Shown in pieces: positions 5,997-28,375 of a stretch of DNA of 64,000 nt. This DNA is from a phage: the NCBI GenBank assembly GCA_029366385.1, contig GCA_029366385.1_4540.1; one strand, written 5' to 3'. Below the pieces are notes generated by a model, which saw only the letters and a list, made by a program, of their open reading frames with translations, was not told where the DNA came from and searched no databases. Within the stretch, counting starts at the first letter, position 1, and each line of letters starts with the position of its first letter. The translations under genes and the position numbers were made by a program.

Positions 5997-6008
5997 TTGG
6001 TTCTCCTC

Positions 6009-6302
6009 TCACATTAAGACACGTTTTGTATCGATGGGTGCATTATCAAACATGTTAAGAACATTGTCAAGCAGTTTTACTAATTCATTTGTAATTTGTT
6101 CTTTTGAACGGGAGGAAGTGAGCACTTTGCTTTCACCAACGATATGCATAACTTTTATAGGAGCATCTAAAATAATGTTGTGCTGACGATCCTCTTCAAA
6201 AGAAGCCAACCATTTCTCGTTGTTACCGTGTAAGGCTACAATGACACCAAAACCGTTAATTGTCTCAGAAATATTCTTAGTTGCTAAAGTAATGTTCATC
6301 AT
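6009..6302 (-). CDS. Hypothetical protein
   Basis: 97-aa ORF; first gene of leftward block, RBS-like AGAGAGG upstream. Confidence 0.5.
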   Translation of the reverse strand: MMNITLATKNISETINGFGVIVALHGNNEKWLASFEEDRQHNIILDAPIKVMHIVGESKVLTSSRSKEQITNELVKLLDNVLNMFDNAPIDTKRVLM

Positions 6303-6327
6303 CTACCTCTCTTGTTAATGTTCATAT

Positions 6328-6355
6328 ATGATACCTGAAAATAATTTCAGATCAA
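6328..6355 (-). promoter_or_regulatory. Putative sigma70-like promoter for leftward block (TTGATC-N16-TATCAT on - strand)
   Basis: Reverse complement of 6328-6355 gives TTGATC, 16-nt spacer, TATCAT; located in divergent intergenic region. Confidence 0.3.
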
Positions 6356-6358
6356 GTA

Positions 6359-6386
6359 TTGACATGCTTTTTAGTCCTGTTAAGAT
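6359..6386 (+). promoter_or_regulatory. Putative sigma70-like promoter TTGACA-N16-TAAGAT for rightward block
   Basis: TTGACA 6359-6364, TAAGAT 6381-6386; 30 nt upstream of RBS AAGAGGAGA and ATG 6417. Confidence 0.45.
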
Positions 6387-6416
6387 CAACTCATACAAAA
6401 CAAGAGGAGAAAACAA

Positions 6417-6851
6417 ATGCAAAACATCAAACTGACTTGGACCGAAGCTAAAGAAGCAATGAAGGAAGGTAGACGTGTTGAGCACAGTTATTTTTGCGGT
6501 GGTGAATGGTTTGAGATGCGAGATGGTGTTATTCTCGACGAACAAGGTTATAACATGGAAACTTGGTTCAGAGGGGAAGCTTGGCAGGAAGAGGGTTGGT
6601 CTGTAATTGAAAAAGAAGACAGTAAGGAAGAAGGCGTGTTGTCTAATGTAGAACGCAAGATGAGGGAAACAAAGATACCTGCTTTGGATTTTGTATACCT
6701 GGAAGAACTTGTGGCAGCATCTTTTGTAGCAGGAAATCTTTGGAATACACCTGTTAGCCGACTGGAGAACCAAAATAACCCATCTGCTCGTAATCACAAG
6801 CTTTATAAGGGTAAAGGTCACAACAAATTAAAGAAAGGAAAGAAGAAATGA
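6417..6851 (+). CDS. Hypothetical protein, possible DUF2829-like N-terminal region
   Basis: 144 aa; strong RBS; pattern W-TEAKEAMKEGRRV ... W..EEGWSVIE recalls DUF2829; Lys-rich C-tail; antisense track ORF 6315-6821 judged spurious. Confidence 0.5.
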   Translation: MQNIKLTWTEAKEAMKEGRRVEHSYFCGGEWFEMRDGVILDEQGYNMETWFRGEAWQEEGWSVIEKEDSKEEGVLSNVERKMRETKIPALDFVYLEELVAASFVAGNLWNTPVSRLENQNNPSARNHKLYKGKGHNKLKKGKKK

Positions 6852-20734: not shown

Positions 20735-21709
20735 ATGCAACTCGGTTTCCCAATTATTGATGTAGTTGTTTTAGTTGGTATTTTAGCATTGTCTATTGGT
20801 ATCGATTTCTTTGGTCATAAAGAGAATAAAGAAATTGGAATTAAATCTGCTTTGCTTTGGTCTGTTTTTTGGATTGCTTTAGCTTTAGGATATTACGCAT
20901 TCATTTGGGTAGAACATGGTAAAGAGTTTGCCGCGCTTTTCCTAAGTGGCTATGTGTTGGAAAAGAGTCTTTCTGTAGATAACCTAATGGTGTTCATGGC
21001 AATTTTTGCAAGCTTTGGAATTAAGAGCACACATCTCCAACATAAGATTTTACTTTGGGGGATTGCAGGAGCCATTGTCTTCCGAGGTATTTTTGTTGCA
21101 GCAGGAACAGCTTTATTTAACCTGCATTGGTCGGTCCAAGTGCTGTTCGGTCTGATTGTAGCTTGGTCTGCCGTTGCTATTATCAAAGGTGGTGACGAAG
21201 AAGAGGATATCGATTACTCTAAACATTGGGCTGTTCGTTTAGTAGGTAAAATCCTGCCTGTGCACAATGCACTGGATGGTGAAAAGTTCATTACCATTAA
21301 GAATGGTATTAAATATGCAACTCCTGCTCTTCTTTGTGTGTTTGTTATTGAGCTTACAGATATTGTCTTCTCTTTTGATTCAGTTCCGGCTGTGATCGGT
21401 GTGACACAAGAACCTCTGCTAGTTTATTCTGCAATGCTGATGGCTGTTCTTGGTTTACGTGCACTTTTCTTTGTGTTAAGTGTAGCTGTGAAATATTTGG
21501 TTCACTTAGAGAAAGCTGTTGCTGTGGTTCTGGTGTTTGTTGGTGCTAAACTTATGTATCATCCGTTCGGTGAAACACTTCATGCCAAGTGGTCATTCCT
21601 CCCGCATGATATTTCCCCTAACGTAAGTCTGATGATTGTTCTAGGCACATTAGCTCTTGGTGTTATTGCAAGCTTTATCTTCCCTGAAAAAGAAGAAGCT
21701 ACTGTTTAA
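20735..21709 (+). CDS. terC: TerC-family integral membrane protein
   Basis: 324 aa, multiple TM helices; motifs EKSLSVDNLMVF and TDIVFSFDSVPAV. Confidence 0.8.
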   Translation: MQLGFPIIDVVVLVGILALSIGIDFFGHKENKEIGIKSALLWSVFWIALALGYYAFIWVEHGKEFAALFLSGYVLEKSLSVDNLMVFMAIFASFGIKSTHLQHKILLWGIAGAIVFRGIFVAAGTALFNLHWSVQVLFGLIVAWSAVAIIKGGDEEEDIDYSKHWAVRLVGKILPVHNALDGEKFITIKNGIKYATPALLCVFVIELTDIVFSFDSVPAVIGVTQEPLLVYSAMLMAVLGLRALFFVLSVAVKYLVHLEKAVAVVLVFVGAKLMYHPFGETLHAKWSFLPHDISPNVSLMIVLGTLALGVIASFIFPEKEEATV

Positions 21710-23334: not shown

Positions 23335-23925
23335 ATGCATACCGAGAGAGACTTGCAACTCTTGTGGTGGGAAGTGATGCAGGAAATAAAAGAAGATTTT
23401 CCTGTTTACTACAACATGTTACATGAAGCAGGATATAAAGCTTGTGTTAGAAACAAAGTGAATAACTCTTTCGGTTGGTGCAACTACCGAGATAAAATTG
23501 TTGTTGTAAATTGGCACTTGCATAAGAACTCCACAAGAGATATGATCGTGGATACAATGAAGCACGAAATTGCTCATGCTATTGATGGTTGTATGGGTAA
23601 GTTTAGTAGACACGGTGCTCATTGGCAAAAACTGGCAGCAGAGTTAGGGGCTAATCCTAAAGCCACTTCCAAAGAGCCGTTGAACCACGAATATAAATAT
23701 GTTCTTGTTCTGGTAGATAGGTTTGCGACAAGATGTGTTAGAGGTTATAATCGTAAACCTAATCGCATGTACCCAGGTAAGCAACCTAATATGTGGTTGA
23801 AATCAGATAAAGAAGGGACCGAAGGAAAATTATGGTTGTATAAATGGGACGATTGGGTTAAAGTAGCTAAAGAGTACGGTGTTTCACCATATATAAGAGA
23901 TGCAGAAGAGGAGAATGAAGAATGA
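23335..23925 (+). CDS. SprT-like zinc metallopeptidase domain protein
   Basis: 196 aa; HEIAHAI (HExxH) followed by HGAHWQ. Confidence 0.6.
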   Translation: MHTERDLQLLWWEVMQEIKEDFPVYYNMLHEAGYKACVRNKVNNSFGWCNYRDKIVVVNWHLHKNSTRDMIVDTMKHEIAHAIDGCMGKFSRHGAHWQKLAAELGANPKATSKEPLNHEYKYVLVLVDRFATRCVRGYNRKPNRMYPGKQPNMWLKSDKEGTEGKLWLYKWDDWVKVAKEYGVSPYIRDAEEENEE

Positions 23926-25034
23926 CAAGTCCATTTTTAAAAGCAGCTACTGGCGGTCAGAAGAAACCTGAAATGAGCGTATTTGCTGCAACAACAGATG
24001 CAAGTAAATCTGTATTCGCTCCAAGCGTGTTAGATGCCAGTCCTGTTTATGCACCAGCGGCACCGCAAGAAGTTCCAGTTTTGCCTTCTATGACCCGACA
24101 AGAGATCGAAGAGATTGGGGCAGAGGCAGGAACAACCTTGCGTTCCTTGAATGCCGAGGTATTAAAACATCAACGTAGTAATCAAGGCGATCAGATGAGT
24201 GAACGACTCACAGCTTTGATTAAACAGGCAAAACAACTTGATCCAAACTCTATTAAACAAAGCAAGGGTATTACTAAACTCATTAAAAAAGTTATGGGTA
24301 TGAAAGAAGATCTGTTTGGGGAGTTTGATAATGTTAATAACCGTATTGAAGAGTTGGTAAAAAACCTTCAAATGGATATTCGCAAAGAAGAAGATTCCTT
24401 GGTATATCTTGAAAAGCTACATCAAGCTATTGGACAATATGCTGCAAGTTTGAACCGAGATATGCAGCTTCTAACAGCAACCTATGAAAAAGAAGAACAA
24501 GCTTTGGCTGCTCTTCCAGAAGATGCAGTAGAACAGCGACAAGTGATCCGAGACACTTTGGATCTTCTGGAGATTCGTATTGCAGATTTAAAAGCATTGC
24601 GCCTACTGTGTGTCCAAATGGGACCGCGTGTACAAGGTATGCAAAAAGTTTCTGCAAGCTTAATGCGATCTGCGCGTAACATAGTAAATAATGTTATTCC
24701 TGCTTACTCTGCTAACTTCTCAATGTATATCGAGAGCTTACGTCAAATGAAAGCAGCAGAGACGCAGAATAACGTTCTTGATGAATTTAACCTAGCAATT
24801 AAACTGGGTAGCGATCTTGCCACACAGAATCAGATCGAAGCAGCAGCACTGGCTAACCGTCAAGTGTTGGATATTGAAACTCTGCGTCACGATCAGGAAA
24901 ACTTGGTTAAGATGTTGGAAGAAACTAACCGCATCAATACGGAAGCCCGTGCTGCTCGTGTTGATTATATTAATGAAGTTCAATCTCTGGAAGACGGGAT
25001 GGTAGCTGCTGTGAAACGAGGGCTTGGTAAATGA
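23922..25034 (+). CDS. Putative TelA-like (toxic anion resistance family) protein
   Basis: 370 aa, long helical protein; resemblance to TelA is from recalled pattern only. Confidence 0.4.
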   Translation: MTSPFLKAATGGQKKPEMSVFAATTDASKSVFAPSVLDASPVYAPAAPQEVPVLPSMTRQEIEEIGAEAGTTLRSLNAEVLKHQRSNQGDQMSERLTALIKQAKQLDPNSIKQSKGITKLIKKVMGMKEDLFGEFDNVNNRIEELVKNLQMDIRKEEDSLVYLEKLHQAIGQYAASLNRDMQLLTATYEKEEQALAALPEDAVEQRQVIRDTLDLLEIRIADLKALRLLCVQMGPRVQGMQKVSASLMRSARNIVNNVIPAYSANFSMYIESLRQMKAAETQNNVLDEFNLAIKLGSDLATQNQIEAAALANRQVLDIETLRHDQENLVKMLEETNRINTEARAARVDYINEVQSLEDGMVAAVKRGLGK

Positions 25035-25401: not shown

Positions 25402-25597
25402 CTACGATAACGACCCTAATATTATCCAGTTAACCCGACAAGAACTGATCACAATCATTGAAGATGCTTTTATTGATGGCTGGAATACACAAGACAATGA
25501 TTGGGGTGGACCCGAAGCTTTTCTGGAACATCATAAAGCTTATGGAGAATTTTGTGAAACCACTGTAGCTCTTGATAATCTGAAGGAGGGTTTGTAA
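25394..25597 (+). CDS. Hypothetical protein
   Basis: 67-aa ORF. Confidence 0.45.
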   Translation: MFNYDNDPNIIQLTRQELITIIEDAFIDGWNTQDNDWGGPEAFLEHHKAYGEFCETTVALDNLKEGL

Positions 25598-26160
25598 TGG
25601 GTTGTTTTAGCTTTTTGTGCAAAGAATCGGGCAAAGCTGCCCTTTCTACTTCTTTCGACGGATCACCTTGTTATCTCTTTCTTTTGAAGGACGGTGTTGT
25701 TATTGAAGAGATGTATGGCAACTATGATAGTTATGGTTGTGTTTTCTCTGGAAAGGAGGATGAAAATGGCGTTCGTGAAAGGTTCGAATGGGCTATGGAT
25801 TGGGGTAAGGTTTGTGATTTAATGCATTCCTCAAATCCAAGGGACGGTATTGCTATGGTGCTGGAAGAGTACTTTACAGGTGAAATCCCTACAGAACAAT
25901 CTGACGGAGATCCTAACCAAGGTTGGGGTGATGGTGAAGAAGATCCAGATTGTTTTTTCAGCACAGAAAAGAATAAGTTTAAACGTGTTGACAACCCTTA
26001 TCACAAAGTGCATAATACTCTCATTGAAACAGAAGATGACAAGATGGAAATTGAAGAAGATGATCCTCTTGTAACACTTCCTATAAGTGAGTTACAAAAG
26101 ATCACTAAGGAAGCTTACGATTTGGGCTTCAAAATTGGTAGAGGAGGTATGCGTGTTTAG
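25597..26160 (+). CDS. Hypothetical acidic protein
   Basis: 187-aa ORF. Confidence 0.5.
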   Translation: MGCFSFLCKESGKAALSTSFDGSPCYLFLLKDGVVIEEMYGNYDSYGCVFSGKEDENGVRERFEWAMDWGKVCDLMHSSNPRDGIAMVLEEYFTGEIPTEQSDGDPNQGWGDGEEDPDCFFSTEKNKFKRVDNPYHKVHNTLIETEDDKMEIEEDDPLVTLPISELQKITKEAYDLGFKIGRGGMRV

Positions 26161-26431
26161 ATTCAATATTCAAGAAGAAAAGTATCAAGATTTACCTATT
26201 GCTTTCGAAGATCTTGGCATAGGGGCCACATTCATGTATTATGATGCCTATGAAGACGCAGGGTTGGATACCTACCGTAACTTGGTGTTCATTAAAAATT
26301 CCACAAACAGTGCGATCTGTATTAATGGATCACTAGCACAACGAGGCTATACTCATTGCATCCCGCCAGATACAAATATGGTGGAAGTAGATTTAGAAGT
26401 TACCAATATTACACTTAAGAAGGAGAAATAA
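26153..26431 (+). CDS. Small protein, paralog A of 27453-27722
   Basis: Track ORF 26087-26431 taken from GTG 26153 after GAGGAGG; shares F-I-E.K...I.DL..G.TF.Y..A.....LD ... EV.L.VT.ITLK with 27453-27722. Confidence 0.5.
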   Translation: MFRFNIQEEKYQDLPIAFEDLGIGATFMYYDAYEDAGLDTYRNLVFIKNSTNSAICINGSLAQRGYTHCIPPDTNMVEVDLEVTNITLKKEK

Positions 26432-26432
26432 T

Positions 26433-27227
26433 ATGTCCGAGAAAATCAGCCTGAAAAAACGTCAAGAAAACCTTGCTTTCTCTCTGAAAAAGAATAAGAA
26501 CCTGAATGAAGGTAAGATTGTTCTTCGTGTAGCATGTGCTCTAGATATTTCTGGTAGTATGCATGGTCTATATTCTAGTGGGGTAGTAAGTGATTTTGTA
26601 GGTAAACTGCTTCCTTTTGGTATGTTGTTCGACGATAATGAACAAATTGACATGTGGGCCTTCAATACGAGTTCTCAAGAGCTTACTCCAGCAACAGCAG
26701 ACGTTTACGATGACTATGTTGGTAAATGTATGCGTAATATTCGTATTGGAGGTGGAACAAATTACGCCCCTGTAATGGCAGATATCTACGATGAGTATTT
26801 TGGCACTGTTACCAAATATGTTACCACTAAACAAGTGGTACAAGAGGAGGCTCCAAAGAAAGGCTTCTTTAATCGTCTGCTTGGTAAAACTGAAACAGTA
26901 TCTGTAGAGCGTGAAAAGGTTGTAGCTGTATCTGAACCAGGTGCTGACGTTACCCCTGGTGTTGTATTCTTCCAGACGGATGGTGAGAATGGTGATCCTA
27001 GTGCTGTTCGTCGTCTTATTGAAGAGAATAAGAATAAGCCTATCTATTGGTTCATGGTTGGCGTTGGTAATGAGAAGTTCAGCTTCCTGAAAGAACTGGC
27101 AAATGCTTATGATAATGTTGGTTTTATTGGCATTAAAGATTTAGACTTGACAGATTCAGAGCTTTATGACAAACTCTTATCTGAAGAGTTCGGAGAGTGG
27201 GTTGTTAAAGTAGGTGCTAAAAAATGA
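26433..27227 (+). CDS. von Willebrand factor A (vWA) domain protein, TerY-like, with TerD-like N-terminal segment
   Basis: 264 aa; MIDAS-type ALDISGSM; N-terminus MSEKISLKK resembles the TerD N-terminus. Confidence 0.65.
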   Translation: MSEKISLKKRQENLAFSLKKNKNLNEGKIVLRVACALDISGSMHGLYSSGVVSDFVGKLLPFGMLFDDNEQIDMWAFNTSSQELTPATADVYDDYVGKCMRNIRIGGGTNYAPVMADIYDEYFGTVTKYVTTKQVVQEEAPKKGFFNRLLGKTETVSVEREKVVAVSEPGADVTPGVVFFQTDGENGDPSAVRRLIEENKNKPIYWFMVGVGNEKFSFLKELANAYDNVGFIGIKDLDLTDSELYDKLLSEEFGEWVVKVGAKK

Positions 27228-27472
27228 TCGACGAGCTTGCCTCTCAAGTCGTAGAAAATTATTGGCGCGAGAGAGAAGCTTTCATTATGCGCAGTCTCAA
27301 AGAATATTTCATTGGGACTGTGCGGATGGAAGATATTGTAAGTAGAGTAGAGATTCATGTATGGCCTGATTATGAAGAATGGGTTGACAAAGAAAATGAA
27401 AATGCTATAATTCTTCGTATATACAAACCGGAGATAACATTAGGAGGAAGAAGTGTTAAACTTCGAAATTGA
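27224..27472 (+). CDS. Hypothetical protein
   Basis: 82-aa ORF. Confidence 0.45.
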   Translation: MIDELASQVVENYWREREAFIMRSLKEYFIGTVRMEDIVSRVEIHVWPDYEEWVDKENENAIILRIYKPEITLGGRSVKLRN

Positions 27473-27722
27473 TGAGCAAAAAATAAATAAACGATGCCTT
27501 ACCATTAAAGATTTGGATGTAGGAGATACTTTCGTCTATGAAAATGCATTTGACGAAAATGGTTTAGACCTTAGTGAAGTCATTGTTTATTTAAAAGTAG
27601 ATGATGGGGAAAATGATTATTCTGCTGTAGAACTAAACCATCATGCACAATTAGTAGCAATCCAAAACACATCTAAGCTTTTGGAAGTAGAATTGACTGT
27701 AACTGGTATTACACTTAAATAA
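27453..27722 (+). CDS. Small protein, paralog B of 26153-26431
   Basis: 89 aa, GTG start after AGGAGG. Confidence 0.5.
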   Translation: MLNFEIDEQKINKRCLTIKDLDVGDTFVYENAFDENGLDLSEVIVYLKVDDGENDYSAVELNHHAQLVAIQNTSKLLEVELTVTGITLK

Positions 27723-27737
27723 TAGAGGAGACAAAAG

Positions 27738-28340
27738 ATGACTGATAAAATTTCCCTGAAAAAAGGCTCTAGCGAAAAAATTTCCCTGAAGAAAGTTGCT
27801 CCGGCTCTGAAAGAACTGCGCCTGGAATTCTCTTGGAAATCTGATTCTAAACTGGATCTGGATGTAAGTGCACTGGTTTGTCGTCACAATGCCGCTGGCA
27901 ATCCGGAAATGCTGTCTGCACGTCATCTGGTTTGCTATGCTAACAAGTTTGATCCTGAACGTTCTACCTTCGCTGGTGACGATGTTCGTGATGGAACTGG
28001 CAGCATGGAGCAGATTGATATTACTCTGGCTAAAATCTCTCCTGATGCACAAGAGATTGCCTTTGTTCTGACCATTGATGATGATACAGGTCTGAAACGT
28101 TTTGGTCATGCTTCTGAAGGTATGCTTAAAATCTTCGACTCCGAGCGCAATGTGGAAATTCTGGATTTTGACTTCCTGGCTCCTGAAGTAGCTGGCAACA
28201 CAATCTGCCACGTGGCTTCCTTGGTTCGTGAAGATGGGGAATGGAAACTGAAAGCATATGGTGTAGGTAAAGCTGGTCTGGATATTTGCGATGTGGTGAT
28301 GGCCTTCGGTGGTAAAAAAGAATGGTATGAATGTCCATAA
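27738..28340 (+). CDS. terD: TerD-domain stress protein
   Basis: 200 aa; aligns by eye with enterobacterial TerD (ISLKKG..ISLKK, FVLTIDD, DGEWKLKAYGVGKAGL); CTG/CGT/GGT-rich codon usage. Confidence 0.85.
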   Translation: MTDKISLKKGSSEKISLKKVAPALKELRLEFSWKSDSKLDLDVSALVCRHNAAGNPEMLSARHLVCYANKFDPERSTFAGDDVRDGTGSMEQIDITLAKISPDAQEIAFVLTIDDDTGLKRFGHASEGMLKIFDSERNVEILDFDFLAPEVAGNTICHVASLVREDGEWKLKAYGVGKAGLDICDVVMAFGGKKEWYECP

Positions 28341-28355
28341 TTAACAAATGATTTT

Positions 28356-28375
28356 GAGGGGGAGAAATCCCCCTC
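28356..28375 (+). terminator. Stem-loop with GAAA tetraloop (terminator-like or RNA processing site)
   Basis: 8-bp stem GAGGGGGA / TCCCCCTC; 16 nt after terD stop; no long T-run. Confidence 0.4.

Follow-up and report, generated by a model that had tools for sequence, protein, structure and literature searches.

Ter genes, including those for TerC, TerD, TelA and the TerF-type vWA proteins, are widely carried by bacteria, resistance plasmids and virulent phages, and confer resistance to tellurite, colicin and phage; to our knowledge, the joint working of the Ter proteins is still unexplained. A compact Ter hub was reportedly described by Anantharaman and colleagues in 2012. Iyer et al. (2021; PMC7824862) describe such a hub, comprising TelA, a TerF-type vWA protein, TerC/DUF475 and TerD, from bacteria, plasmids and virulent phages, and it was noted in phage phiKp34 (PMC8386662). 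Based on comparative genomics, phage Ter modules have been proposed to serve superinfection exclusion or stress tolerance (PMC7824862; PMC8386662). In this study, two small genes, A (26153–26431) and B (27453–27722), lying beside the vWA and TerD genes of a phage Ter module, were analyzed in a 64,000-nt stretch of DNA (contig GCA_029366385.1_4540.1 of GenBank assembly GCA_029366385.1, hereafter the window). Judged by sequence, the window is a Phapecoctavirus (phAPEC8-like) stretch with a TerC...TelA...vWA...TerD module; more than 60 Phapecoctavirus Escherichia coli myophages (Stephanstirmvirinae), for example ESCO13, matched its 3-kb small-gene region at 98.3–98.7% identity.

The module encodes the same four families as the compact hub, and homologous Ter modules were found in a Caballeronia plasmid and in the phages Bambus, CcrSC and Cygsa01 and a Rhizobium phage. 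In contrast to the compact hub, however, the phage gene order is TerC ... TelA ... vWA ... TerD with many small genes inserted, and one or two genes for small proteins of predicted SH3-like fold are present, which the examined hubs of other phage families and plasmids lack. The TerF protein of IncHI2 plasmids (terZABCDEF, R478 type) is a further relative, sharing with the phage vWA protein the PF10138 domain preceded by a repeated hxLxK motif. In TerF, a full N-terminal TerD domain is fused to this part, whereas the phage vWA protein stands alone, and its residues 1–30 correspond only to the motif in the TerF linker.

The two small genes encode acidic proteins of 92 aa (A, pI 4.5) and 89 aa (B, pI 4.3), and the first-pass annotation had taken them for paralogs. 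This was borne out by BLASTP, in which A and B aligned end to end without gaps at 28/89 identities (31%, E=2e-13), and by their full-length matches to the same protein family, phrog_11278 (A, E 9.1e-49 over residues 1–92 of 92; B, E 8.2e-44 over residues 1–89). The PHROGs entry of this family gives neither function nor fold, so that its link to Ter genes, its positional variants and the SH3-like prediction are new here. Both genes do start at GTG behind an AGGAGG element (26142–26147 for A and 27442–27447 for B, with a 5-nt spacer each), as had also been noted. Since both copies of the divergent Phapecoctavirus phiWec179 start at ATG, however, the GTG is incidental rather than a family trait. 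In ESCO13 the counterparts of A and B, gp221 and gp224, are annotated in GenBank as hypothetical coding sequences with identical starts. A third copy was looked for in the 64-kb window and none was found, so this candidate was rejected.

The family is small and confined to one group of phages as far as it was detected. A word-indexed search of 5.8e9 clusters returned 7 relatives of A, and 22 when the family profile was used, while exhaustive screening of 1.8e9 representatives with a hidden Markov model (HMM) gave 21 matches at E<=0.001, 19 of them family-sized proteins (54–93 aa) and two being weak repeat matches in very long proteins. Members were detected only in Stephanstirmvirinae isolates and in similarly organised contigs of uncultured phages. 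Consistently, tblastn with two distant members (P0025 and P0026) hit only Stephanstirmvirinae-type isolates with genomes of about 145–155 kb. A related-loci search with P0026 found nothing, and one locus (L023) from the search with P0025 was discarded as a false positive, having 65% GC and no HMM match. The small proteins matched no family in scans against Pfam (none at E<=0.01), NCBIfam and PADLOC, and Foldseek against BFVD recovered only the family itself and weak matches to unnamed small phage proteins.

AlphaFold2 models built with the family alignment reached a mean predicted local distance difference test score (pLDDT) of 83.2 for A and 88.6 for B, the latter with a predicted template-modelling score of 0.80. 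Both models contain five strands and one short helix in identical order, and the two proteins are predicted to adopt an SH3-like beta-barrel fold. All family members are acidic (pI 4.3–5.5), and hydrophobic core positions make up most of the invariant residues, which also include G24 and a G-L-D loop.

The position of the small gene differed among relatives, whereas its company did not. In phi92 (Justusliebigvirus) and Klebsiella phage 05F01, a single copy lies directly 5' of vWA, with 64 and 41% identity to A, respectively, and TerD follows vWA directly. In phiWec179, A-like and B-like copies occupy both positions. Six loci of uncultured phages that share the overall synteny and hold five distinct family members (L005, L006, L007, L008, L010 and L012) carry one copy between vWA and TerD, and in five of the six the start of the small gene overlaps the vWA stop by 8 nt. 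In another uncultured relative (L011), the space between vWA and TerD holds a tandem pair of family members (6001–6273 and 6283–6546), an independent duplication of the small gene. The small gene adjoined vWA and/or TerD in every context examined, and these contexts indicate a lineage-specific add-on that was repositioned or duplicated more than once. Because relatives carry a copy 5' of vWA, a copy between vWA and TerD, a tandem pair, or none, it was the small gene alone that was duplicated. The ancestral order was most likely vWA–small gene–TerD. B sits where the distant relatives hold their single copy, and from position we infer that B keeps the ancestral slot and A a new one. In a neighbour-joining tree, the A-type proteins, including those of phi92 and 05F01, formed a clade with 69% bootstrap support and the B-type proteins one with 71%.

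Two side observations concern gene content near vWA and TerD. phi92 carries an extra 200-aa gene (gp171; L002 5788–6390) between TerD and the endolysin gene, whose product starts without the TerD hairpin motif described below. In psageK4 (L016 2034–4070; an Otagovirus module) an 84-aa hypothetical gene from outside the small-barrel family separates two vWA genes.

The small genes are closely packed with their large neighbors, and predicted expression signals surround them. All genes from a 187-aa open reading frame (ORF) 5' of A through TerD are tightly packed: the A start overlaps the stop of the 187-aa ORF by 8 nt, the A stop lies 1 nt before the vWA ATG, vWA (26433–27227) and the following 82-aa ORF (27224–27472) overlap as ATGA, the 82-aa ORF overlaps the B start by 20 nt, and B and TerD (27738–28340) are 15 nt apart. 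The last codons of A, AAG AAG GAG AAA TAA (26417–26431), carry the vWA Shine-Dalgarno sequence (AAGGAG), and because this sequence encodes it, a C-terminal tail (xEK; KKEK, GEK and similar) is specific to A-type proteins; B-type and distant members are without it. A promoter-like site, P1 (25988–26016; TTGACA-17-CATAAT, 11/12 matches), lies inside the 187-aa gene about 137 nt 5' of A; it is conserved in ESCO13 and phi92, and phiWec179 keeps it as TTGACA-17-GATAAT though the surrounding gene is truncated there. A second predicted promoter, P2 (27384–27411; TTGACA-16-TGcTATAAT, a perfect sigma-70 consensus with extended -10), lies inside the 82-aa ORF 42 nt 5' of B, and both of its hexamers are conserved in ESCO13 and phiWec179. 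P2 is the sole perfect sigma-70 consensus in the 64 kb, where 0.09 would be expected by chance; phi92, which has no B, has TTGACT-16-TAAAAT in its vWA–TerD spacer. A GC-rich hairpin, GAGGGGGA-GAAA-TCCCCCTC (28356–28375; -17.2 kcal/mol, z=-2.9), begins 16 nt after the TerD stop; it has no T-run and was not called by a terminator scan, and it probably marks the end of the P2 unit.

These signals suggest two predicted sigma-70-promoter-driven units, P1–A–vWA, possibly extending to the 82-aa ORF, and P2–B–TerD–hairpin. The layout of two parallel units of promoter, small gene and large Ter gene, which the first-pass annotation had read as a duplicated pair, therefore stands, but the paired duplication does not, as the downstream genes belong to different Pfam families. 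Codon usage differs between the two genes of the P2 unit: 17 of the 19 Leu codons of TerD are CTG and its GC content is 0.45 vs. 0.39 for the window, making it strongly host-optimal, while B uses CTG for none of its 12 Leu codons and has a GC content of 0.31. Such codon usage points to very high expression of TerD, or else to a different origin of the gene.

The 264-aa vWA-TerF-like protein matched PF10138 with 128.6 bits (gathering cut-off 29.4; E 5e-37; domain residues 31–260), and among 12 homologs its D38, S40, S42, D183 and G184 are invariant and T109 nearly so; these residues (DxSxS ... T ... D) presumably form the metal ion-dependent adhesion site (MIDAS) known from vWA domains in general. 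The 200-aa TerD protein matched PF02342 with 98.9 bits (gathering cut-off 25.3; E 3e-28), is homologous to the solved TerD structures 2KXT (E 1.5e-15) and 3IBZ (E 2.9e-14), and has the motif GDxxR.G.G..E conserved among 13 aligned homologs.

Both large proteins do begin with M-x-x-KISLKK, MSEKISLKK in vWA and MTDKISLKKGSSEKISLKK in TerD, which opens with the hairpin KISLKKGSSEKISLKK. The vWA motif is a double hxLxK repeat at residues 4–20, ahead of the Pfam domain, and the two motifs are encoded at 26442–26492 (vWA) and 27747–27794 (TerD). In pairwise comparison the N-termini matched weakly (E=0.014), and in an hhalign comparison of the family alignments only columns 1–22 vs. 1–20 aligned (E 1.3e-4, probability 53%). 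L7, K9, L18 and K20 of vWA are invariant in its 12 homologs, and L7, K9, L17 and K19 of TerD in its 13. Given this profile-level match and the invariant Leu and Lys positions, low-complexity coincidence does not account for the ISLKK N-termini.

The vWA motif is found, however, far beyond genomes with two small genes. Phages have it both where the small gene is single (phi92, 05F01 and L005–L012) and where it is missing (phiKp34, Bambus, Cygsa01, CcrSC and the Rhizobium phage), and the stand-alone vWA proteins of the Caballeronia plasmid and of unrelated phages open with it as well. The 413-aa IncHI2 TerF has its TerD domain at residues 1–161 and its vWA domain at 212–412, and carries the motif, ARISLEKKLETRSPRLVSLAKKASVSLTK (RISLEKK...VSLAKK.SVSLTK), in the interdomain linker at about residues 177–205. 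Because of this distribution, the shared N-terminus does not come from a local cassette duplication; it is an ancient beta-hairpin element that both protein families have, forming in the TerF-type vWA domain an N-terminal appendage similar to the opening strand pair of TerD.

The double hxLxK motifs of vWA and TerD were also found to co-vary within genomes (the window, L014 and L016–L020). Both proteins carry KISLKK in the window and LSVEK in CcrSC, while the vWA and TerD sequences are, respectively, LILDLEK...LILDLEK and LILDLQK...LVLDLEK in Cygsa01, VIDLEKK...ISLAK and VIDLSKG...INLAK in Bambus, and TLDLTK...LNLEK and VLDLNK...VLDLSK in the Rhizobium phage. In psageK4 the motif halves stand in swapped order, MLDLTK..LNLEK in vWA and LNLSK..MLDLTK in TerD. 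In a permutation test on local alignment scores of residues 2–24, each of seven independent lineages was represented by one genome; among all 5040 permutations, the true vWA–TerD pairing scored highest (mean score 31.1 vs. 20.8, p=0.0002, 1/5040). Control segments 25–60, 61–120 and 121–190 had no pairing effect (p=0.69, 0.95 and 0.17, respectively), so amino-acid composition was rejected as the cause. In each genome the two motifs use different synonymous codons; the co-evolution is thus at the protein level, and recent gene conversion was rejected as the source of the shared N-termini. An in-step change of the hairpins is the pattern that direct contact, or contact with a common partner, would produce. 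No earlier report of this co-variation was found in a search that did not cover the main Ter review, which may describe the vWA motif. The co-evolving vWA and TerD hairpins are the most interesting lead at this locus.

Based on these results, we lean, with modest confidence, toward A and B being paralogous, lineage-specific accessory or adaptor subunits of a phage Ter complex, with the small gene alone duplicated and the shared hairpin being older. The small barrel would be co-expressed with vWA and TerD and would act as a stoichiometric partner of the complex, in an adaptor or assembly role, and the duplication may have let one copy specialise for each large subunit. Binding to vWA or TerD is suggested by the linkage, the overlapping genes and the charge complementarity between the acidic barrel and the lysine-rich N-terminal hairpin, to which the barrel may bind. 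The module itself may play a role in membrane or ion stress or in superinfection exclusion during infection. Several observations weigh against this proposal. In phiKp34, itself of Stephanstirmvirinae, two TerD genes come after vWA and no small-family member was detected, and the family is lacking in the Ter modules of Otagovirus, Dolichocephalovirinae, the Rhizobium phage, Cygsa01, the Caballeronia plasmid and IncHI2 plasmids; candidate members in phiKp34, psageK4, Bambus and the Caballeronia and IncHI2 plasmids were rejected, as the HMM had no match at E<0.6. Since these phages and plasmids run vWA–TerD without a family member, the core module can do without the small protein. Among the phage relatives the region is collinear as a whole, and the conserved adjacency may in part be general synteny. 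A and B were sisters with only 24% bootstrap support, so that the proposed event order and their link to the distant single-copy sequences are tentative, and in comparison with ESCO13, B has 3 nonsynonymous and 0 synonymous differences, which are too few to interpret.

Some of the same observations feed the main rival explanation, in which the small proteins would be independent early or host-takeover proteins, or anti-defence sponges, that merely occupy a conserved slot and are functionally unconnected with vWA or TerD. Anti-defence sponges are known among small SH3-like phage proteins, the predicted sigma-70 promoters are strong and suggest early expression, and the region running from TerC through the endolysin and glycosyltransferase genes to the primase-helicase gene is syntenic in all relatives, while the core module works without the family in phiKp34 and in all the Ter modules examined outside Stephanstirmvirinae. 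Yet the gene was moved or duplicated at least twice, to 5' of vWA and in the L011 tandem, and each family member seen stood directly against vWA or TerD; in the distant relatives the start of the small gene overlaps the vWA stop, and the A-type 3' end carries the vWA Shine-Dalgarno sequence. Because every repositioning keeps the small gene against vWA or TerD, this explanation is weakened, and we regard it as rather unlikely. It would be less likely still that the small barrel is a FeoA-like metal-handling or regulatory partner of TerC, or of the Ca2+/metal sites of TerD and vWA. TerD and vWA MIDAS proteins are metal-binding families and TerC belongs to metal transport, so the module would suit such a partner, and FeoA and other small SH3-like partners are alike in size, predicted fold class and the placing of a soluble barrel gene beside a metal-related membrane system. 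However, the small proteins have no sequence relation to FeoA (PF04023), and among 20 members scanned no consistent Pfam family emerged even at E<=10; nor is a conserved His/Cys/Asp cluster evident in the family alignment. We therefore consider the FeoA-like role improbable.

Least probable of all, to the point of being nearly discounted, is the history put forward in the first-pass annotation, in which an ancestral cassette of a small gene and a TerD-like gene was duplicated and one TerD body was then replaced by, or fused to, a vWA domain, with ISLKK as the relic. Each small gene does form, with its AGGAGG-5-nt-GTG start and a downstream KISLKK protein, one of two parallel units; TerF proteins do fuse TerD and vWA; and, with a constant offset of roughly 1300–1305 nt, the DNA is about 76–77% similar over the 3' end of the small gene, the ribosome-binding site and codons 1–9 of the large gene. 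This similarity, however, tracks conserved amino acids, and the Ser codons of the two motifs differ (AGC vs. TCC), so that no recent copying took place at the DNA level. vWA and TerD align over only about 20 N-terminal residues, and as relic of a duplication the motif should not recur, as it does, where the small gene is single or missing and on bacterial plasmids; in TerF it lies just before the vWA domain in the linker, outside the TerD domain. Moreover, the vWA–TerD adjacency predates the small-gene duplication. The vWA N-terminus of the window (MSEKISLKKRQ) is near-identical to the MSEKVSLKKRQ of L006, where no small gene lies 5' of vWA, so it was not imported with copy A.

The region holds further genes, among them the other two of the Ter module. 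The TerC membrane protein gene (20735–21709; PF03741, E 4e-40) and the TelA gene (23922–25034; PF05816, E 3e-33) lie 5' of the small genes and, like A, B, vWA, TerD, the 82-aa ORF, both promoter sites and the hairpin, are on the plus strand. Between TerC and TelA, a SprT-like metallopeptidase-family protein (23335–23925; PF10263, E 5e-9) overlaps the TelA start, and several small ORFs lie between TelA and the small-gene region. On the 3' side follow genes for an endolysin, four glycosyltransferases and a primase-helicase. The 187-aa ORF (25597–26160; phrog_14928) encodes a protein starting with MGCFSFLC, with a very acidic C-terminal half. The slot just 5' of vWA is filled by a gene of 193–229 aa in L005, L006, L008 and L012 and of 187 aa in phi92, while in phiWec179 the same slot has a shorter, 132-aa gene; the 187-aa ORF may be a further component of the Ter module. 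The 82-aa ORF (phrog_22387) was seen in Phapecoctavirus only, being absent from phi92 and 05F01, and may have been acquired together with P2 and B. Neither ORF matched a family in Pfam, NCBIfam or PADLOC scans.

The duplication by itself is unremarkable, a lineage-specific event within an established phage genus; what is new is a variant form of a known phage Ter module, in which an uncharacterised small protein is duplicated. In a bolder extension, which we offer as speculation, the vWA hairpin would mimic the TerD beta1–beta2 strands and dock by strand exchange or at a shared TelA or TerC site, with the two acidic barrels serving as chaperones or adaptors that recognise the lysine-rich hairpin, one for each large protein; if true, this would give a first concrete picture of how the long-enigmatic Ter system is physically wired. 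The locus thus gives two testable handles, a duplicated partner candidate of predicted SH3-like fold and a co-varying vWA/TerD hairpin, and both could help reveal the architecture of the Ter complex.

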